Below are positions 1 to 64,000 of a stretch of 64,000 bases of DNA, in pieces; the stretch's first letter is position 1; every line of letters starts with the position of its first letter. The position numbers and the translations under genes were made by a program. The DNA is from Nitrosopumilaceae archaeon (lineage in GTDB: Archaea > Thermoproteota > Nitrososphaeria > Nitrososphaerales > Nitrosopumilaceae): positions 2,304,001 to 2,368,000 of the forward strand of contig CBDCCK010000002.1 in assembly GCA_965214835.1 (NCBI GenBank), in the 5' to 3' direction. Below the pieces are notes generated by a model. The model was given only the letters and a program-made list of their open reading frames with translations, did not search any database and was not told the origin of the DNA.

Positions 1-80
1 GACTGTGCCGATCTGCAGGCAGCTTTGCTTGAACCGTTTCGAGTTTGGAGCCGTCTTATGGGGAACTTCTGGGAAGACTG
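1..80. mobile_element. Right part of a CAGT-ended (ISH3-type) MITE, cut by the window edge
   Basis: Ends in ACTTCTGGGAAGACTG; similar in reverse to the MITE at 1771-1891. Confidence 0.65.
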
Positions 81-41324: not shown

Positions 41325-42371
41325 TTGTTCTCAAAGACCGTGACTGAGATCCCCAAGAAGCCCAAACCGGTCACGACAGAGCACACCGCATACAAACGCG
41401 AATGCGCCGACTGCGGCCACGTGTCAATCGAGGACGACAGGGACTGGAACGTGCAGGGAACCGAGTTTGGACCAAACATTACGGGGATGATAACCTCAAT
41501 GCACATGGCACCTGCCTCCATACAGGCCACGGCCACAATGTGCTCAGAAATCCTGGACATGGACGTCTCAGAGGCAGGCGTGCTGCAGTGCCTGAGGGCC
41601 TGCACCAAGGCAATAAAGCCCAGCGTAAAGGGCATCAAACAGGCCATCAAGGATTCTGATTATCTGCATATTGACGAGACTGCCATGCCATACAACGGCA
41701 GGACGGCCCGCATATGGGTAATAGTGGGCAAGAACAAGGACGGCTCCACGACCGGCGTTCATACGCTGGTCGCACCCAGCAGGGCCAGGGTCGTAGTTGA
41801 CACGAACTTTCCGTATTATGATAAACCAGTTACAGTTGATGGGTACGGCGTATATGTCGTATTCAAGATCAGGCAGTGGTGCTGGGCACACATACTCCGG
41901 GAGGCCAAGGACGCCGGCAAGACTTCCCGGCAGGCCCACGAGCTGTATGATGCCCTCAAGAAAAAATTTCTTTTTGCCAAGGGGCTGGGGCCACCACCAC
42001 CGGAGGAGAAGAAGAACGGTGTCAGGCAGCAACAACACGACATGCTGGTAGTCGAGACACGCGCGCTGGCCGTAGCATTCAGGGAGGCAGGTTGCAAAAA
42101 ATTTGCCACAAAGCTTGAGAATGCCTCAGAATACCTGTACACGTTCGTGCTGTATCCGGGCATGGAGCCCACCAACAACCTAGCCGAGCGCATGCTGAGG
42201 CCGTCCGTAATTGCGCGCAAGATATTCCAGGGACTCCGTACCATGGAGGGCATGGAGATGTTTACCGTACTGATGACGTGTACGATGAACTGGCGCGCCC
42301 AGAGTTGCAACGTGAGTGAGATGGTCGCCAAGACCCTGACTGGAAACGTCGCCTGAGGGGTAAACTCTTAC
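41325..42371 (+). mobile_element. IS66-family transposase 3' part (ORF to 42356) and right TIR
   Basis: HIDET, VDGY, CWAHILRE, PTNNLAERMLR; ends GGGGTAAACTCTTAC. Confidence 0.88.
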
Positions 42372-51946: not shown

Positions 51947-53309
51947 TAACACGGCGGCGTTCCCTCCACCACACATACAAAAGCTGGCATGCGGCTTTAA
52001 TTACATCAGCGCAGGTGCCGTGGACGAGGACAGAATCCTGTGGAGTGACAGTGTTCTAGGCCCTGCCCAGTTCAACACCCCGGGCGGCGACGCACCCAGA
52101 ATAAAGCCCGAGATAACCGCAATCGGCGTAGATCTTGATCTTGCACGGGCCGCAGATACTAGAAGTATGATAAACCGCGACTATGAAATAGACTCCGGTA
52201 CGAGCTTTGCCACCGCCTTTGTGGCAGGTGCCAGTGCCCTGATCCTAGAAAAGCAGCCGGACTACCGGCATCTGGAGATAAAGTCCGCACTGATGCTTGG
52301 CGCAGACTGGCAGGCAGACACGCCGGCGACGGCAGCAGACTATGATGACCGGAGGGCCGGGATATACGATACCATGAACCGGTACGGCTTTGGCATACTC
52401 AACGCAACGAGATCCCTTGACTATGCCAACGACAACCAGTACCCAAACGTCCTGTACGACCAAAGCTCAAGCGACTTTGAGGTAAATTCGTACAGGATAT
52501 ACGCAGGCGCAGGCGAGCAGGTAAAGGTGCTGCTGTCATGGCTGGTGCATCCGAGAGGCACGGTACTGTCGCCCACCCTTCCAATCGGCAGCCCGCACAT
52601 CCAGCTTCCAAGCCAGTACCACAACTATGACCTCGCGGTGACGCTTCCCAACGGCGTGACAAGGACAAGCGACTCTGACGTCCAGAACAACGAGTTTGTC
52701 GTGTTTGACGCACCAGAGACCGGATTCTACACCATCACCGTGAGCTCCGACGGGACGCTGACGACTGCCGTCGGCGAGCCGTACACCCTGGCAAGCACTC
52801 ACGGGATAGACAAGTTCCCATACGACCTCGTCGTCCCGGTCACGGAGTTCGCAGACGACTTTGAGTCGGACCTCTCAAAGTGGGACATCTCCGGCGACTC
52901 TGACTGGGAGACGGGGGACCCCGACGAGGACGTGCCCGGCGAGAACAGCCGGACAAACCAGGCGCTCATATCAAGCAACTGCGACATTGTCTGCATCGCC
53001 ACGATATCCTCGACGTTTGACACGCAGGACGCGCTGACCATCTCCTTTGACAGGTTCGTCGACTCCAACGTCGATGCCGGGGAGGGCCTGTTTGTAGAGT
53101 ACTCTGCAGACGGAACCAGCTGGACCGGCCTTGCAAGCTATACCCACGACAACCGCGAGGACAGCGACTCGTGGAGCAGTGAGTCCCTGTCCTTGGATAT
53201 AACGGATGACACCGCAATGATCAGGTTCGTGGCAAAGTCCAGCTCCTCAAGCGAGCATGTCGAGATAGACAATGTTGCAATAATGGAAAGTAACGGAGGC
53301 GGACCCTCG

Positions 53310-54710
53310 GACACGACTGACCCCGTAATCACCGTGCCCGCAGACGTCACGGCCGAGGCTACCGGCGTACTGAGTATGATATCCATAGGGCAGGCCACGG
53401 CCACCGACAACCTGGATCCCGACCCGGCAATCACAAACGACGCACCAGAGTCGTTTCCCCTAGGCAGCACGACAGTCACGTGGACTGCCACGGATGATTT
53501 CGGCAACACGGCCACTGACACCCAGACTGTTACGATACGGGACACGACGCCGCCCATGATCACGGTGCCTGCAGACCGTACCGCGGAGGCCGCCGGCGTA
53601 CAGACTGCCGTATCCATAGGGCAGGCCACTGCCACCGACATTGCAGATCCCGACCCGGCAATTACAAACGACGCACCCGCGTCGTTCCCGCTCGGCGATA
53701 CGGTAATCACATGGACTGCCACAGATGATTCGGGCAACGTGGCCACTGACACCCAGACTGTTACGGTTCAAGATACCACGCCGCCGAGCATCACGGTGCC
53801 TGCTGACCATACAGCAGAGGCCACCGGCGTGCTGACCACAATATCAATAGGGCAGGCTACGGCCACCGACAACCTGGATCCCGATCCTGTCATCACGCAC
53901 GACGCACCGGAATCGTTCCCGCTAGGCAGCACGACAGTCACGTGGACTGCCACGGATGACTTTGGCAACACAGCGACTGCCACCCAGACTGTTACGATAC
54001 AGGACACGACACTGCCGAGCATAACCGCACCACCAGATGTCACAACCGAGGCCACCGGCGTGCTGACTGTAACATCCATAGGGCAGGCCACCGCCACCGA
54101 CAACCTGGATCCCGACCCGGCAATCACAAACGACGCACCGGAATCGTTCCCGCTCGGCGACACCATAGTGACATGGACTGCCACTGATTCCTCCGGCAAT
54201 GCTGCCACGGCCACACAGACCGTGACGATACAGGACACCACGCCGCCGAGCATCACAGCACCCGCCGATCATACGGCCGAGGCTGCCGGCATCATGACAA
54301 TCCTGAATGCCGGCGACTATGGGACTCCCGCCGTGTCTGACATTGCCGATCCCAGCCCCACAATCACAAACGACGCACCGGAATCGTTCCCGCTCGGCAA
54401 CACCACGGTAACGTGGACTGCCGCCGACTCTTCGGGCAATGCCGCCACGGCCACACAGACCGTGACGATACAGGACACCACGCCGCCTGCCATATCCGGC
54501 CTGCGCAACATAAACGTGGATGATCCGGCGGGCCGGGGAATGGAAGTCAGCTATGATGCGCCTACAGCTACAGACCTCGTGGACGGGGTCGTGGCAGTAT
54601 CGTGCACGCACGAGTCGGGATCGACGTTTGCGCCCGGATTCACCGAGGTGTCATGTATGGCGACAGACGGCTCTGCAAACTCGCTGCGGGACTGGTTTAT
54701 CATACACGTG
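53310..54710 (+). repeat. About six tandem HYR-like domains (~228 bp units)
   Basis: Repeated DTTPPSITxPAD...FPLGxTxVTWTATD units. Confidence 0.85.
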
Positions 54711-56460: not shown

Positions 56461-56695
56461 TGCCGGCATAATGCCCCACAGGCGGCACTGCCTGCCGGGG
56501 CCATACCGCGCGGAATGCGCGGCAGCAATCTTCTGGAGGCGATAGACTCTTGCCTCTTATCGTGTATTGCTGCGCAATACCTAAATCAGGCGTAAGGTTC
56601 AATCATCGGAACGCAAAAAGGATGTATCTTACTATCTAGGAATGAAAATCACAGTCGCATGTAAAACCGTGCCTGATTAGTTAAGGGGGAAAACT

Positions 56696-56720
56696 TCCAT
56701 ATCAAATTATTCTGGTTCCC
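56696..56720 (-). mobile_element. Isolated end of the IS110 element joined to a MITE terminus
   Basis: GGGGAAAA-CT-TCCATATCAAATTATTCTGGTTCCC, compare 60428-60462. Confidence 0.7.
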
Positions 56721-58378: not shown

Positions 58379-59522
58379 TATAATCCAAAAAGTAGTTCAC
58401 CCCTTCTCCGAGGGTCAAGTCGGTAAGGATCAGATGCACGGGCCTCATGCATGCCACTGGAAACAAGGGTGTGTGGGTCTGGCGCAAAAGGGCTGGTAAA
58501 TACGTCAGTCTTGCACGCCCCAACAACATGAATCTAAACAAGTCAGGCGTACAGTGGATAGTACGCCAAAAGCAAAAGGGAGACATGACAAACGCCCAGA
58601 TAGCCGAATCCATGAACGTCTCGGTCCGCTGGGTACAGAAACTGTGGGCCCGGCACAGGTCAGGCACCATACAGGACATATCGCACCCCGCACGGATGGG
58701 AAGGCCCCAGAACGGCATGCCCGGGCGCAGGGAGCACTCGGCGGTCCTCTCGGTGCGACCCTCCGAGCACCTGGGTGCGGCATCACTGCAGGATCTCATA
58801 AGGGAAAAGACCGGGATTAGTATCCCGCGACATACACTGCACGGCATGCTAAAGGACGAGGGGATGGCCAGAGACGAGCCCAACGGGCGCAGAAAACGCA
58901 GGTGGCTGCGCTGGGAGATGGAGTATTCCAACTCCATGTGGCACACCGACTGGAAGCAGATACACGGCGGAATGCACGACGGCAGGTGGTTTTTGTGCTA
59001 CGAGGACGACGCATCCCGGTTCGTGACCGGATACGGCATATTTGACAACGCGACTACAGAAAACGCCCTCAAGGTGCTTGACGGGGCCATGCAGAAGCAC
59101 GGCAGGCCCGCCTCCATAATGACGGACCACGGAAGCCAGTTCTATGCAAACGAAAAACAAGGCGCAAAGAGGGGGCACAGCGAGTTCGAGGAGAGCCTGG
59201 AGGCCCTAGGCATACGGCAGGTCCTTGCCGGGGTGCGCCACCCGCAGACAAACGGCAAGGTCGAGAGGCTGCACGGCGAGATACAGCGCAAGCTGCACGA
59301 GTTTGAGGATATCATGATGAGAACAAGCGATCCCATGGATCTATTCATGAAATGGTACAACTACGACAGGCCCCACATGTCCCTTGACCGGGAGAACCGG
59401 GAGACGCCGGCGCAGGCATATGAGCGCAAGATGCCTCCTGCGGGCGAAACGGTCATAGATGGGCAGACCAGGGAGGAATATCATGTCAGATAGGGGGGGT
59501 GAACTACTTTTCGGATCCCACA
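58379..59522 (+). mobile_element. IS481-family IS (transposase ORF to 59493)
   Basis: IR AAAAGTAGTTCACCCC / GGGGTGAACTACTTTT; WHTDW, EDDASR, TDHG, HPQTNGKVERL. Confidence 0.88.
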
Positions 59523-59557
59523 TCGCCTCCCGGCCAGCTCGTGGTTTATATAGTGAA

Positions 59558-60319
59558 ATGATTTTCGGATACCAGTGGTTCAAGCTAGTGTGCGGTGCGG
59601 CAAGCAGAAATGAGCGATTACAAAAAAAAAAAACAATCCCTGGCAAGCTAAAGTACTATTGCAAAAAGTGCGTCTCTGTTGCCACCACCCCGTGGCCACG
59701 TTCGGCTCAGTCGTTCTTGTATACGAAACTATTACGGTGGTATCTTCCTGCTAACGCAACAGTCGCACAGGTAAAGTCGGCAATACCGGATTTATTCGAA
59801 GGCAAATATTCCAGCGTCCTGTACATAGGTGCGAGTCACCTGAGACAACACTTTCTGGACGACTTTGTACGCATGTATGATCGTGTCGTAGTGCTTGAGA
59901 TCGATAAGAAAAACGCAGAATATGTCAGGCAGAAATTCGACCTGCCAGGAGTTACCGTGGTATGCGGTGACGTACGCAATACAGCGGACTTGACGGAGAG
60001 GGAATGGGGGGGCGGGCGGTTCGATGTATGCTTCTTTTACCACGGTTTGGAGCACCTGCCCAAGGAGGATGTCGCCGGCGTGCTAAACACGCTTGAATCC
60101 ATAACAGATCATATAATTGTGCTTGGAATGCCATACGGACATTATAAGCAGGATTCTGAATACGGGAACGTATACGAAAGACACCTTTGGGACATCTATC
60201 CGGGCGACATGCACCGGCTGGGATATCGAATCGACACGATGGGGGACGTAGACGACACCTTATCAAACATGATTGCTTGGAAGCGCACCGGCAAGAAGAC
60301 CTCTGGACTCAAAAAGTAG
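59558..60319 (+). CDS. Class I SAM-dependent methyltransferase-like protein (start uncertain)
   Basis: VLYIGAS, VVLEID, CGDVR, FDVCFFYHGLEHL. Confidence 0.7.
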   Translation: MIFGYQWFKLVCGAASRNERLQKKKTIPGKLKYYCKKCVSVATTPWPRSAQSFLYTKLLRWYLPANATVAQVKSAIPDLFEGKYSSVLYIGASHLRQHFLDDFVRMYDRVVVLEIDKKNAEYVRQKFDLPGVTVVCGDVRNTADLTEREWGGGRFDVCFFYHGLEHLPKEDVAGVLNTLESITDHIIVLGMPYGHYKQDSEYGNVYERHLWDIYPGDMHRLGYRIDTMGDVDDTLSNMIAWKRTGKKTSGLKK

Positions 60320-60351
60320 CCTGATGACGGTGTGGATCCCGTGCTTTCCTT

Positions 60352-60437
60352 GTAAGAGTTTACCCCTCCCCCAAGATACGACGTGGCAGGCGTGACCATG
60401 AAGGCTCCGGCCAGCAGTACCGCCTGAGGGGTAAACT
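60352..60437. mobile_element. IS66-type MITE whose right TIR is split by the IS110 element (last bases at 62152-62156)
   Basis: GTAAGAGTTTACCC...GGGGTAAACT|CATAC; body similar to 42660-42750. Confidence 0.8.
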
Positions 60438-60515
60438 CCCATATCAAATTATTCTGATTCCCTGCACGGGCCGCTGCGAGTGTGCGTTTCTCAGTCAGAC
60501 GTATTTACTAGACAC

Positions 60516-61713
60516 GGGGTTGTCCAAAAAATTTCCAAGAGGCTGCCATAATCTACCAGTCTGCCCCCGTATGTATGTAAATTCAGATGCAGAACGGGAC
60601 ATTTTCGGCCGGCCATGCGCAAAAGGCAACGTAAATATCCATGCGGGCCATACCTTACGGTAGTGCTGCGGTTCAACAACAGTACGGGTTATGATAAAAA
60701 ATTATACCGTAAGGTTGTAGCACAACACGCGAGCGAACAGCTCGACTGTAATGGTTCCGTCCAGTTTTGAGCGCAGGACGGATCCAGTCCTTTCCTTCAT
60801 TGCCGAGAACAGGGCCTCTACCTAGCTCCTCATGTGATAGGCGCGCCAGAACTCGTCTGGCCTGTCACGCAGCCACTGCAGCATCTTGGCCCGGGCACTG
60901 AACCCGCGGGGCTTTTCGTTTCCCTTTGCCGGCTTTATGGCAGGTCCGCGGCCGCTTTTTGCGATCAGCTCGCAGTTTTTGTACGAATCGTATGCCGAAT
61001 CCAGCGCCACTATGCCGTATCCTCCCTTTGGGATGCGGGAAAACATGCGGGCAAACTCCGGCGAGTCGGCCGATGTGCCAGGCGTGGCCTCAAATGACAG
61101 TATCCTGCCTCCTACTGCGCCTACTATGTGCAGCTTTGCAAAGTCGTGTCCTGTCATCTCCCCGTACTTGGCATGATGCCAGCTCTTGTACTTGCGGAGG
61201 CCAAACCCCGTCGAGTCACCATGCAGGTCCGCTATGCGCTCGCCGTCTGACATGGCCAGCACGACCTCGTCCATAAAGTCCTTGCCCATTTCCCAGAGCA
61301 TCTTCACCCTGTTGTGCAGGGTGGACTTGGAGAGTGTGTGGTCCAGGCCGCACCTCCTAAGATCGTCCGGATTTGTCTCCAGATGCGTGGCCATGATCCT
61401 GTAGGACAGGTGGTTCTCGATCCTGAGGATCGCAATGCGTATGGCAGACCATGCAAGTTTGGCATCGATTCCCGTTTTGTCCGCCATCTTCTTGGCCACC
61501 CTGCGCACGATCTTTCCCAGGTTCTTCCTTGCCCTCTTCTTGCGGGGGCTCTCCTGCCTGCGCTTTTGCTCGTAGAGTCGGTAATAACCTGTGTTCTTTC
61601 TGTCGTTACTCATTGAAATAGCCAGGATCGGCTGATCAAAATTGTTTTCGGCGTATTACGCCCATGATCTATAAGCTTAGCGGTCATTTTGAGGAAATTT
61701 TTTGGACAACCCC
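60516..61713 (-). mobile_element. IS5-like DDE IS; transposase 60822-61613 has a premature TAG
   Basis: 21-bp perfect TIR GGGGTTGTCCAAAAAATTTCC, 9-bp duplication ACTAGACAC; DSTG, KLH, DSAYD, RS*VEALFS. Confidence 0.88.
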
Positions 61714-61981
61714 ACTAGACACTCAATCATTTTATACTTTCTCTCCGTGAGATCTTTGTTCTGTGTGCGGTATTCGGTTTCATCAGCCAGCACGTGCCAG
61801 ATCACCTTTGCCAGCGTTCTGGCCACGACTGCCATCCTTGTTCCGTCGGCTGTGTTGGAAAACTCTGCCTGTTCCAGAATCCCTGCAGCCAGGTCCTTGA
61901 TGGCCGCTACACGCGTCTTCTTATGAACGTCTATTCCTATGTTGATCATTTTATCACCTCCTTTTTGATCAAAGTGTGTGT

Positions 61982-62100
61982 GCCCAACTGAACGGAAAAC
62001 TCCCATTCGCCCTCGATTATGTGGCATTTCGTTGTCCGCCTACTCTGAGCCAGTCTCTTACGCGCCCTCATATGTGGCAAGGTTACTTCGGCTCTTGGGC
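61982..62100 (-). ncRNA. Putative IS110 bridge RNA, copy 2
   Basis: Same three-stem, two-internal-loop fold as 81-196; differences fall only in loops. Confidence 0.72.
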
Positions 62101-62185
62101 CCAACACGGATAATATGGCGTCCGCTACAGATAAGATTTGATATAACGCCTCATACGATTTTTTTACTTTCGTATAGGATATGTG

Positions 62186-62400
62186 GTAACAGGATAGCCC
62201 CCAGCCAGAGTTGAAGTCATGTCCCCCCTTGCCGAACATCTTCTGCCCGCCGGAAGTCCGCAGTCCGAACCGTATCGTGCGAGCGATCACGCCGGGCCTC
62301 AGCGTGCGCTCGGCCAGGTTGTTGGTGGGATCCATCCCAAGATGCATCAGGAACGTGTAGAGAAACTCCGAGGCGTTCTCAAGCTTTGTGGCATAGCTGT
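62186..62400 (-). pseudogene. IS66 transposase C-terminal remnant with TIR
   Basis: KLENASEFLYTF...PTNNLAERTLRP; end GTAACAGGATAGCCCC. Confidence 0.75.
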
Positions 62401-62452
62401 TGGTGAGGACCCCGGGAAATGCCTGCCTGCCTGCCAGTATAAATAGGATCTG

Positions 62453-63569
62453 ATGATGTACAAGCGTATGGTGGTGGATTGGACGGCACTGCGCACGTGG
62501 TACTGGAACATCCGGCCGCACGACCATCGTGTGAAATGTCCCATATGCGGCCGTTCAAGACACGTCCAGAGGACGGATTTTAAAAAGCTCCCAAGGCACC
62601 CGGTGGCACACATGATTCTGCAAGGGAACAGGAAAAGCGCCCTTACATCCTTTCTCCGTGCCCCCCATGCAAGGGCAGGTTATGGCAGCCGAACCGGGAA
62701 CAGGAAAAGCGCCCTTACATCCTTTCTCCGTGTCCTGCCGGACTTTCTCATCATAGGAACAACCAAGTCGGCTACCACGTCGCTGTATGGTCTGATGTGC
62801 TCGCATCCACATGTGCTTCCTGCACGGGCCAAGGAGATAGGATACTTTGCCAGCACGTGGGCATACATGCACGGCCTGCAGTGGTACCGCACCCACTTTC
62901 CGACCGTACTGTACAAGCGCTATCTTGCATGGAGAACAGGTCGCAGGATGCTTACTGGTGAGGCCACCCCACAATACATGTTCTTCCCGGACGTGCCGGG
63001 CAGAGTCAAAGCCGTGCTTCCGGACGTCAGGATGATCGCCATCATGCGCAACCCCGTCGACCGCGCCTATTCGGAGTACAACATGCGGCTCAGAAAGGGG
63101 AAGGAGTCACTGACCTTTGAGGACGCAATATCTGTAGAGGGCAACAGGGTGTCGTATGAGCGGGAAAAGGCGGCATCGGATAGCAGATCCGACGGGTGTG
63201 ATCTTCACTTCTATCTGAGCAAGGGTCGCTATGCAGAGCAGCTGACTCGCTGGTACAAGTACTTTGACAGGAACCAGATCCTAGTCCTGACGACCGAGGA
63301 GCTGGGGGACGACAGGCAGGGCACGCTTGACAGGGTCTTTGGGTTTCTTGGACTGGAGCCGTTTGAGGTGGGGGGGGGAAACGGGCCGCCTGCCGAACCT
63401 GCCTTGGATGGGGAGGTACAAGTCCGAGCCGGGCGATCCCTTCAGGCTCAATGCGGGCAGCTACCCCCCGATGAGGCGCGACACGCGCAGGATGCTGGTT
63501 GACTATTTTCGTCCGCACAACGAGCGACTATATGATCTTTTGGGGCGCGGTCTTGACTGGGATCGGTGA
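62453..63569 (+). pseudogene. PAPS-dependent sulfotransferase, frameshifted at a G9 tract
   Basis: PDFLIIGTTKSATTSL, RNPVDRAYS; typical C-terminus YFRPHNERLYDLLG lies in another frame after 63370-63378. Confidence 0.85.
62624..62732. repeat. 37-bp direct repeat pair with a 35-bp spacer
   Basis: GGGAACAGGAAAAGCGCCCTTACATCCTTTCTCCGTG at 62624 and 62696. Confidence 0.9.
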
Positions 63570-63572
63570 CTG

Positions 63573-63644
63573 GTGCTGGGTACACAGTGCTGGGTACACA
63601 GTGCTGGGTACACAGTGCTGGGTACACAGTGCTGGGCACAGTGC
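63573..63644. repeat. 14-bp tandem repeat, about five copies
   Basis: GTGCTGGGTACACA units. Confidence 0.9.
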
Positions 63645-63678
63645 GCACCGTTAAAATCTGAACATTTTTTATCGAAAT

Positions 63679-63949
63679 AGGCACGATATGTCAAAATTAC
63701 AGTCCGTTTTTTATGGGTTGACTACAGCATTCCCAAAGTACAGCCAAGTGAAAAGTACCACAGATCTGGCGTCATGGAGTGGGGGTGCGGCCTATCCCAT
63801 GAGACAAACCGTCGCATCTCCCTGAATACCGGCATTGAATACCATCATGGATGCCGTGCTGCAACGCAAGACAGGCGGCCGGATCAAGGGAGGCTTGCTC
63901 TGTAGTGCGCACATCAAAAAACGGATCATAGTTTTGACATATCGTGCCT
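63679..63949. mobile_element. 271-bp IR-bounded IS remnant or MITE
   Basis: 18-bp perfect IR AGGCACGATATGTCAAAA. Confidence 0.6.
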
Positions 63950-64000
63950 GCTTTGGCAAGACATGATCCATTTTCAGCTGTGCGTACTATGGGTGTACGG

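Follow-up and report, generated by a model that had tools for sequence, protein, structure and literature searches.

The question raised by this locus is what kind of mobile element occupies positions 60438-62151 of a 64,000-nt stretch of Nitrosopumilaceae archaeon DNA (contig CBDCCK010000002.1; hereafter the window), and how that element came to lie inside the terminal repeat of another one. A preliminary description, made from the sequence alone, had read it as the remnant of an archaeal RNA-guided recombinase system that inserts into the ends of IS66-type transposons. Our answer is similar: the element is very probably a defective RNA-guided insertion sequence (IS) of the IS110 family, damaged twice, by an internal deletion and by a nested IS, with guides aimed at IS66-type repeats. 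Coordinates without a prefix refer to the window, and those with the prefix G000:C2 are positions in the host genome. Host ribosomal RNA was scored best by archaeal models (1452.6 bits for the small subunit and 1134 bits for the large subunit), in line with the archaeal host already proposed.

The region 60352-62156 consists of three mobile elements, one inside another. The outermost, recognized by reading the sequence and by BLAST matches to related genome copies, is an IS66-type miniature inverted-repeat transposable element (MITE) of 91 bp. Its left 86 bp occupy 60352-60437; they begin with the outer (left) repeat GTAAGAGTTTACCCC at 60352-60366 and end with GGGGTAAA-CT at 60428-60437, which belongs to the right repeat and forms its inner part. 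The final 5 bp of the right repeat, CATAC, were split off by the insertion and lie at 62152-62156. Joining 60428-60437 to 62152-62156 reconstructs an empty site, GGGGTAAACTCATAC, with the sequence of the repeat that ends IS66-type elements and MITEs. The two junctions read GGGGTAAA-CT-CCCAT (60428-60442) and ATAACGC-CT-CATACG (62143-62157).

Between these junctions, on the minus strand, lies the internally deleted IS1111-like (IS110-family) element. It measures 1714 bp with the nested IS and 507 bp without it, the smaller figure being what remains once the nested IS and one 9-bp duplicate are taken out; one copy of the core CT (AG in the orientation of the element), at 62150-62151, is counted as part of the element. 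In the orientation of the transposase, the right end (60438-60449, minus strand) carries a 3-bp extension, CCC on the plus strand, followed by the subterminal repeat ATATCAAAT at 60441-60449. The left end (62136-62151, minus strand) carries the subterminal repeat ATTTGATAT (plus strand, 62136-62144) and a 7-bp extension, AACGCCT on the plus strand, with one core copy included. Every coordinate and junction in the preliminary description proved correct when checked against the sequence.

BLAST searches with pieces of the element found many copies in the 3.22-Mb host genome. A single copy, at G000:C2:311703-313053 (~1.35 kb), is full-length with an intact transposase frame of 365 amino acids; two further full-length copies are broken, and the remaining copies are truncated. 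The intact protein contains in full the domains DEDD_Tnp_IS110 (PF01548, E = 1.5e-25, residues 4-154) and Transposase_20 (PF02371, E = 8.7e-25, residues 224-308), which bears out the IS110 origin proposed for the element in the window. With ~90% identity, the 507-bp remainder corresponds to two segments of the full-length copy, positions 2-314 and 1170-1351. Because it matches both ends of its full-length relative, we conclude that this mini-element (or mini-copy) is an internal-deletion derivative. The deletion, with its junction near 61827-61836, fuses ~37 N-terminal to ~45 C-terminal transposase codons and leaves a fused frame of 83 amino acids once the nested IS is removed. As it stands, the remnant frame (61723-61949, minus strand) starts with MINIGIDVHKK at 61949, gives a weak match to DEDD_Tnp_IS110 (E = 0.0028), and runs into the nested IS with its C-terminal ~45 codons. 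The mini-copy is thus without a recombinase, as its earlier portrayal as a non-autonomous survivor implied; it is not the sole survivor, however, since one intact copy and 13 RNA genes exist in the genome.

The invaded repeat is common in this genome. Its 15-mer GGGGTAAACTCNTAC occurs 37 times on each of the two strands (74 occurrences), and two comparison repeats in the window end at 42371 and 42750, exactly where the preliminary description had placed them when it identified the empty site as the right terminal repeat of an IS66-type MITE. The ends GTANGAGTTTACCCC…GGGGTAAACTCNTAC delimit twelve elements of 1.52-1.65 kb with one long open reading frame apiece, and duplications of 8-9 bp are visible in 10 of the 12. 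One such frame, of 534 amino acids, contains DDE_Tnp_IS66 (PF03050, E = 4.8e-29). The transposase, the terminal inverted repeats, and the 8-9-bp duplications place the target in the IS66 family, and its single-frame layout is presumably that of the 'ISBst12-like' subgroup. The same ends are shared by 14 MITEs of 89-92 bp, with 8-9-bp duplications visible in 7 of them, and some 60 MITE-related BLAST matches were found in the genome.

Insertion into this repeat has been recurrent. Among 14 left junctions of the subfamily to which the mini-copy belongs, 12 adjoin GTAWGAG, the outer end of the IS66-type repeat, one adjoins GCATGAG, and one an unrelated sequence. All six right junctions have the same element right end and adjoin …ACCCC-type repeats. 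Insertions in the repeat are all in the same orientation and at the same position, and the intact copy likewise sits in a MITE. Because the DNA beyond the repeat differs between copies, these represent separate insertions, and the proposal that the family inserts into IS66-type ends is thereby upheld.

A predicted bridge/seek RNA gene lies at 61982-62105 on the minus strand and consists of a basal stem around a target-binding hairpin and a donor-binding hairpin. It was matched over the full length (1-121) of our covariance model R1 with 121.8 bits; the mini-copy RNA was itself in the training alignment of that model. In the orientation of the transposase the family starts with AG-ACGTT-ATATCAAATC (AG-GCGTT in the mini-copy). 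The RNA region starts 44 bp inside the left end and stops ~35 nt before the GGAGGTGA motif and the ATG. According to the covariance model the genome has 13 complete RNA genes, an intact transposase frame following only one of them; the RNA gene is upstream of the transposase ATG in all 13 copies and in the orthologues. Candidate TATA-like archaeal promoter motifs were considered, namely TTATAT in the left subterminal repeat and TTATC or TTATAG at a distance of ~27 nt ahead of the basal stem. Since the motif is, in some orthologues, part of a 5' hairpin's loop, we make no promoter claim.

The two-loop fold proposed for the leader was examined by comparison. Leaders from 21 copies, representing both subfamilies in the host genome and relatives with proteins 45-83% identical, were aligned with MAFFT. 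RNAalifold, run on this alignment (188 columns), independently found three of the five helices, namely the first hairpin's two stems and, of the second hairpin, the inner one. It missed the basal stem (GCCYRA/UYRGGC) and the outer stem of the second hairpin (GCGGA/UCCGC), which were added by hand from the alignment, and it added a 3-bp helix, which we rejected. In the five-helix structure 94.9% of 525 cells pair, compared with 33-49% (maximum 49.3%) when the partners were slid by 1-3 columns. Compensatory changes on both sides are found in 10 of the 25 pairs, and the covariation score was reached by none of 500 shuffles, a figure that overstates independence, the orthologues being related to one another.

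The covariance model, built from the trimmed alignment, gave 30 matches in 28 of 42 sources. Nine of the 30 are complete leaders that were not in the training set, three of them from a different family of the order with ~41% protein identity; in the 14 sources with more distant IS110-family genes the model gave no match. In an alignment of the 30 matches by the model, 97.3% of the cells are paired, with compensatory changes in 17 of the 25 pairs, although this alignment leans to the model's own structure. The mini-copy RNA retains all 25 stem pairs and scores 121.8 bits vs. 129.6 for the intact copy, whose RNA gene lies at G000:C2:312886-313006 on the minus strand.

If this RNA is a guide, its loops should change with the DNA to which the element is joined. 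Loop 1 was compared with the insertion flanks, and the following was observed. Its 5' strand (AAGTAACCT/AAGUAACCU, 62080-62088, minus strand) is complementary to the core plus the right flank (AG-TTTAC… in element orientation), and its 3' strand (CGTAAGAGAC/CGUAAGAGAC, 62053-62062, minus strand) has the same sense as the left flank plus the core (GTAWG-AG). In the family at large the 5' strand is the reverse complement of core and right flank (GTAAACT for AG-TTTAC), and the 3' strand consists of six variable bases followed by a constant AGAC, the six bases plus AG being equal to left flank plus core. In the intact copy CGTAAG-AG stands both in the 3' strand and in the left flank. Flank junctions were located by the conserved element ends and not by the guides, and badly fitting rows were kept in the counts. 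Left flanks agreed with their cognate 3' strands at 4.67 of 6 positions and with non-cognate ones at 1.92 of 6; none of 100000 permutations was as good (18 distinct guides). For right flanks and 5' strands the values were 6.4 of 9 and 4.26 of 9, with one of 100000 permutations as good (10 distinct guides). Kinship among the orthologues inflates these permutation figures as well.

In orthologues that stand at unrelated sites, the loop sequences change in step with the flanks, and the stems and the AGAC tail stay constant. The site GACCGGC-AG-AATAGG goes with the guides CTATTCT and ACCGGCAG; CTTGAT-AG-TATTCA with TGAATACT and TTTGATAG; CGTAAT-AG-TTAATT with AATTAAC and AGTAATAG; and ATCTGT-AG-AACGCTTT with AAAGTGT and GTCTGTAG. 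The core AG (CT on the plus strand) was found at every one of the 19 left orthologue junctions and at 10 of the 11 right ones. Loop 1 thus tracks the insertion site in the host genome, as had been proposed, and does so with different sequences in the relatives.

Loop 2 was compared with the ends of the element itself. Its 3' strand (AATGGGAGTTT/AAUGGGAGUUU, 61997-62007, minus strand) has the same sense as the right end plus core (TATGGG-AG). The segment AAUGGGAG, with the word ATGGGAG noted earlier as an exact match to the right end, is invariant in the 21 leaders and agrees with the right end in all 11 loci in which that end was located. The 5' strand (CAACGAAA, 62027-62034, minus strand) pairs with left-end positions 2-5 (ACGTT). 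Compared with left-end positions 2-6, cognate 5' strands agreed at 4.08 of 6 positions and non-cognate ones at 3.29 of 6, and none of 100000 permutations (13 distinct guides) did as well; the effect is statistically clear and small. The strand also shifts with the left end in other members: CGGGGT is found with ACCCTG, TAGTG with ACACTA, and TGGCA with ATGCCA.

These observations suggest the following course of events, for which homology with IS621 and ISEc11 is the guide. A full-length element would excise as a circle in which right end, AG, and left end abut; the predicted junction for the intact copy is …GATATGGG-AG-ACGTTATATC…. An RNA of ~125 nt, presumably transcribed from the left end, would bind the DEDD recombinase. 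Loop 2 would pair with both ends, AUGGGAG representing right end plus core and NAACG pairing with the left end, and loop 1 would pair with both target strands, GUAAACU with AG-TTTAC and GUAAGAG with the complement of GTAAG-AG. Strands would then be exchanged at the AG/CT core, leaving the element in a single orientation and 5 bp inward of the outer tip of the IS66-type/MITE terminal inverted repeat; the target predicted for the intact recombinase is GGGGTAAACTCWTAC. Both ends of the mini-copy are still there, and its RNA gene is structurally intact; with no recombinase of its own, it could move, if at all, only through the single intact copy in trans.

A number of observations weigh against this interpretation and have to be set beside the explanations they would favor. 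One such explanation is that the loop-flank matches are chance short words and the fold an artefact of a structure picked by eye. Taken alone, the mini-copy matches at 7/10, 7/8, 7/7, and 5/6 positions. It has a GTAACCT guide but sits in a GTAAACT repeat, and its 3' guide GTAAG stands against the flank GTATG, making one mismatch per strand; its left end reads AG-GCGTT, with G as first base where all other copies have A (AG-ACGTT). The minimum-free-energy fold is unremarkable: the 203-nt leader folded as a single sequence was no stabler than shuffles (z = 0.13), and the predicted fold differs from the comparative one. An Rfam 15 scan of window 59000-64000 with E up to 1 gave no match, and the five-helix structure was derived by inspecting the same sequences on which it was tested. 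Across the family, guide-flank fits are poor at the orthologous loci L029 (2/6), L008 (3/6), L051 (3/6), and L063 (right flank, 4/9). The same is true of two duplicated copies of the second subfamily, at host-genome positions 1917498 and 1963049 (TTTAT vs. TCAGT), and the 5' strand of the donor loop pairs with only 3-4 bases in most members. The orthologues, as already said of the permutation and shuffle figures, are not independent of one another. With the single fold unremarkable and the matches of the mini-copy imperfect, the case rests on comparison, that is, on stem covariation, guide-flank covariation, and recurrent insertion. It is here that chance fails to account for the data: permutations equalled the observed agreement in 0/100000 and 1/100000 trials, slid partners gave 33-49% pairing against 94.9%, the model found nine complete leaders outside its training set, and the same repeat has been hit again and again. 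The mismatches of the mini-copy have an explanation of their own. Within the genome GTAAACT guides go with GGGGTAAACT repeats, and the GTAACCT guide is shared with a sister copy inserted in a …GTAAC-CT… variant of the repeat; the IS66-type repeat is polymorphic at the mismatch position (A, T, or C). A guide variant suited to a variant repeat, together with this polymorphism, accounts for the imperfect matches. We consider chance an exceedingly improbable explanation. Recurrence of the site and covariation of the stems, two of the three points on which the preliminary description had staked its reading, were both found.

It is also conceivable that the recombinase protein itself picks the IS66-type repeat or its DNA structure, the leader being a 5' untranslated regulatory structure and its likeness to the flanks a by-product, for example of junction copying. 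The target repeat has potential secondary structure, and CGTAAGAGAC, the 3' strand of loop 1, has the sequence of the junction after insertion, with the element's two first bases included, so an origin from the junction is conceivable. The right-flank complement in the 5' strand, however, cannot derive from the left junction. Orthologues at unrelated sites carry different, matching loops on both strands of loop 1 against a background of constant stems and AGAC tail, and in homologous elements the RNA has been found by experiment to be required and reprogrammable (PMC11208160 and PMC11187229). Recognition by the protein is therefore very unlikely to be the main determinant of the site. A different matter, which concerns the present state of the locus, is whether the mini-copy has become an inert fossil, perhaps along with the rest of its family in this genome: an RNA gene no longer expressed or used, in an element that is decaying debris. 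The mini-copy is ~10% diverged from the intact copy, and this and its nested IS, its changed first left-end base, and the mismatch of each target guide to its own site are what such debris would show; of the 13 RNA genes, only one has an intact transposase frame behind it. Furthermore, neither a circle junction nor an empty MITE site for the mini-element locus was seen among the contigs aligned to the locus. On the other hand, the 25 stem pairs of the mini-copy are intact, its RNA scores within 8 bits of that of the intact copy (121.8 and 129.6 bits), and one copy retains a full open frame with both Pfam domains. In addition, one study has contigs, from three of its runs, in which 60506 is joined to 61714 and the sequence goes on across the deletion junction specific to the mini-copy, with 6-11 differences in about 250-280 letters. 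Because these contigs are without the nested IS, the same deletion derivative exists as DNA without that IS in related populations, and the locus is polymorphic there. Balancing these points, we give the fossil state a probability a little short of even.

Returning to the interpretation of the element as a defective RNA-guided IS, we asked where it belongs among known systems. The DEDD/RuvC-like PF01548 domain and the PF02371 domain of the intact copy, insertion specific in site and orientation, a short core shared by both junctions, and tips without terminal inverted repeats are those of the IS110 family. The RNA corresponds to a bridge or seek RNA in having two internal loops within conserved stems, loop 1 covarying with both halves of the site and loop 2 matching both ends. 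Similarity of the 365-amino acid transposase to the solved IS621 and ISCro4 transposases is distant (E = 4e-14, residues 201-337, for IS621 and E = 1.5e-11 for ISCro4). In the IS621 alignment the NSG motif of the query stands opposite ESGSS of IS621, a motif that we take to hold the catalytic serine.

Two groups, IS110 and IS1111, come into consideration within the family. In the IS1111 group, subterminal repeats are usually 11-13 bp with terminal extensions of 7 bp at the left and 3 bp at the right, and in the RNA the complement of the top strand lies 5' of the match to the bottom strand (Siddiquee et al. 2024, PMC11187229); Durrant et al. (2024, PMC11208160) give 7-17 bp for the repeats and describe the donor as the junction of right and left ends. 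In the present family ATATCAAAT(C) pairs with (G)ATTTGATAT over 9-10 bp, and the repeats covary in relatives (ATATGAAAAAT with ATTTTTCATAT; TATACGAAAT with ATTTCGTATG). The left repeat is preceded by AG+ACGTT (AG+GCGTT in the mini-copy) and the right one followed by GGG, and loop 1 has the IS1111 guide order, with the reverse complement of core plus right flank in its 5' strand and left flank plus core in its 3' strand. That the guides match the strand opposite the open reading frame had been pointed out before as an oddity; the observation stands, but it is simply the published IS1111 order (PMC11187229). The RNA gene lies upstream of the transposase and not downstream as in the IS1111 group. 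The combination of an upstream RNA with IS1111-like subterminal repeats, also remarked on in the preliminary description, is therefore real. Its upstream RNA would fit the IS110 group (IS621-like), but the repeats of 9-10 bp and a polarity inverted relative to the direction of the transposase do not. On its ends and guide polarity we would place the element with the IS1111 group. The upstream position of the RNA is its only atypical IS1111 feature, and a few such exceptions are already published: ISMtsp17, with an upstream region, and ISHvo10 and ISAcp5, with regions at both ends, IS1111-type elements being abundant in archaea (PMC11187229). ISHvo10 is archaeal; the present element is likened to these three by their published description.

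Comparison with individual elements leads to the same placement. Like the IS1111-group seekRNA elements ISEc11, ISPa11, and ISKpn4 (Siddiquee et al. 2024, PMC11187229), it has a DEDD transposase, near-perfect subterminal inverted repeats, 7-bp left and 3-bp right extensions (one core copy counted in), the same guide order, and orientation-specific insertion without true duplication; unlike them, it has its RNA upstream instead of downstream, repeats of 9-10 rather than the usual 11-13 bp, and a Nitrosopumilaceae-type archaeal host. With IS621 (Durrant et al. 2024, PMC11208160; Hiraizumi et al. 2024, PMC11208158) it shares an RNA in the left end upstream of the recombinase, with the target loop first and the donor loop second. 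Each loop reads both strands around a 2-nt core, which is also CT on the strand that gives the IS621 geometry (PMC11208160). In contrast to IS621, the present element is a mirror image relative to transposase direction and has long subterminal repeats, and the proteins are only distantly related. ISEc21, of the IS110 group, also has an upstream non-coding region that gives a seekRNA and also targets another IS family, but it hits a conserved coding stretch of IS3-family transposase genes, has the opposite guide order, and lacks long subterminal repeats (PMC11187229).

Homing on the end of another transposon has a precedent as well. IS4321 and IS5075, of the IS1111 group, reportedly insert within the terminal inverted repeat of another transposon family, always at one position and in one orientation, and split it, much as the present element does (work by Partridge and Hall in 2003). 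Their targets are said to be the 38-bp repeats of bacterial Tn21-family (Tn3-type) transposons and their RNA region to lie downstream; here the targets are IS66-family and MITE repeats in an archaeon. Since the IS1111 hallmarks, upstream exceptions to them, and homing on transposon ends are all known, we regard this locus as a new example of the mechanism described in 2024 and not as a new mechanism. We found no description in the literature of an archaeal IS110/IS1111 element targeting IS66 repeats, although the supplements of PMC11187229 and PMC11208160 may list members of this clade or others laid out in the same way; in PMC13343696, IS110, IS66, and Nitrosopumilus are named in passing only.

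Bridge/seek RNA-guided recombinases are intensely studied as tools for genome writing. To our knowledge, nearly all of the characterized examples are bacterial. This locus and its relatives leave the known mechanism unchanged and add a compact archaeal example, with a recombinase of 365 amino acids and a predicted RNA of ~125 nt. They also provide a case of natural reprogramming across species, in which at least six target sequences can be read from pairs of guides and flanks. The clade mixes features that have been used to part the IS110 and IS1111 groups, and so bears on the evolution of both layouts. One transposon family here homes on the terminal repeats of another; this should disable the invaded IS66 or MITE end and may shape the IS-rich genomes of ammonia-oxidizing archaea. 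A bolder view would make the Nitrososphaeria/haloarchaeal clade a third IS110 architecture, with upstream RNA and IS1111-type ends and polarity, and would make the 12 RNA genes that have no recombinase a guide library used in trans. Its variant guides may be GTAAACT, GTAACCT, and GTAGCCT on one strand and GTAAG, GTATG, and GCGTG on the other. If true, the architecture would record the movement of an RNA gene between element ends in evolution, and the library would let defective copies widen the range of IS66-type repeats and other sites that are hit. We think this view unlikely to be correct.

The distribution of the family was examined with the transposase. Close relatives (E up to 1e-60) were found in 28 of 401 sampled genomes of the class, a count that includes the host genome and genome G298, the latter not used otherwise. 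A scan of genome contigs with the single protein gave only one locus, in a Nitrosopumilus sp. metagenome-assembled genome, with 83% identity in the best segment. A tblastn search against plasmids matched 2988 records, none of which reached 60% identity or had a name more specific than 'IS110 family transposase'; a Klebsiella match that was examined carries no IS name. One of the plasmids, pHSR2-01 of Halanaeroarchaeum sulfurireducens, has a 38%-identical IS110-family gene (52700-54200). By eye it shows the same layout and polarity, with an upstream RNA, loops GGCCTTGAC (left flank), GTCTAAACA (right-flank complement), and ATAGGTG (right end), and subterminal repeats CTATGAAGTC/GACGTTCATAG.

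The nested IS is of the DDE type and 1198 bp long (60516-61713, minus strand; Pfam DDE_Tnp_1, E = 1.3e-5). Its terminal repeats, GGGGTTGTCCAAAAAATTTCC, measure 21 bp, and a 9-bp duplication, ACTAGACAC, lies on either side of it at 60507-60515 and 61714-61722; its open reading frame (60822-61613) encodes 263 amino acids. At least eight near-full relatives with 85-87% identity were found in the genome by BLAST. To the right of the MITE and outside the mini-element lies a C-terminal fragment of an IS66-family transposase (62160-62450, minus strand), which matches positions 230-282 of the 284 in the Pfam DDE_Tnp_IS66 profile (E = 1.3e-4). The stretch 62153-62460 recurs with 96% identity near G000:C2:1783065 (1782900-1783500), beside another variant of the repeat, GGTAGGTGACCTCGTAC. 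At its right flank the window MITE lacks a matching target duplication, suggesting that elements bearing such repeats have recombined. A second contig joint, from 60351 to 61960 with 30 other letters between (two runs), would suggest strain differences at the left edge of the MITE; its short side is 25-39 letters, which is too weak, and it was not used.

Other traces of the family were noted in the window. A second complete RNA gene lies at 76-196 on the plus strand (121.2 bits) and is followed by GGAGGTGA and the N-terminus of a transposase, with an ATG at 229, which breaks off near 331 after ~34 codons; the left end of this element is just outside the window. Between that left end and the basal stem of the RNA sits a MITE of ~125 bp with ends CAGTCTTCCC…, the right part of which forms window 1-75. 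The same MITE interrupts another copy of the family at G000:C2:1764913. At 56684-56720 there is a right-end remnant of the family, ATATCAAATTATTCTGGTTCCC, adjoining GGGGGAAAACTT, a degenerate IS66-type repeat.

The second subfamily is found in the same genome at G000:C2:1909554, 1917668, 1963219, and 2918740, among other sites, and two of its copies belong to a segmental duplication. It has the left end ACGCTATATGAAATC and the right end GATTTCATATGGG, and it has different guides, TTTTATAG and TCCTATAG, and ATGTGATCT, ATCGGAACT, and ATTGTCACT. Its flanks (xTAT-AG or CAGT-AG at the left and AG-ATCTCC or AG-TGGCGA at the right) point to targets other than the IS66-type repeat. The host genome as a whole is very IS-rich for its family and, at 3.2 Mb, larger than the 1.5-1.8 Mb or so of most relatives; one tblastn-type search of it gave 53 IS110-family protein matches. 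Finally, a related genome (G003:C3, near 937000; locus L006, 1244-1319 and upstream) contains a tandem partial duplication in which one copy of the orthologous element has inserted into the RNA gene of another, immediately behind the 3' target guide. Because this guide is identical in sequence to the left half of the target, the RNA gene looks like a half-site, and this case appears to be one of natural self-targeting.

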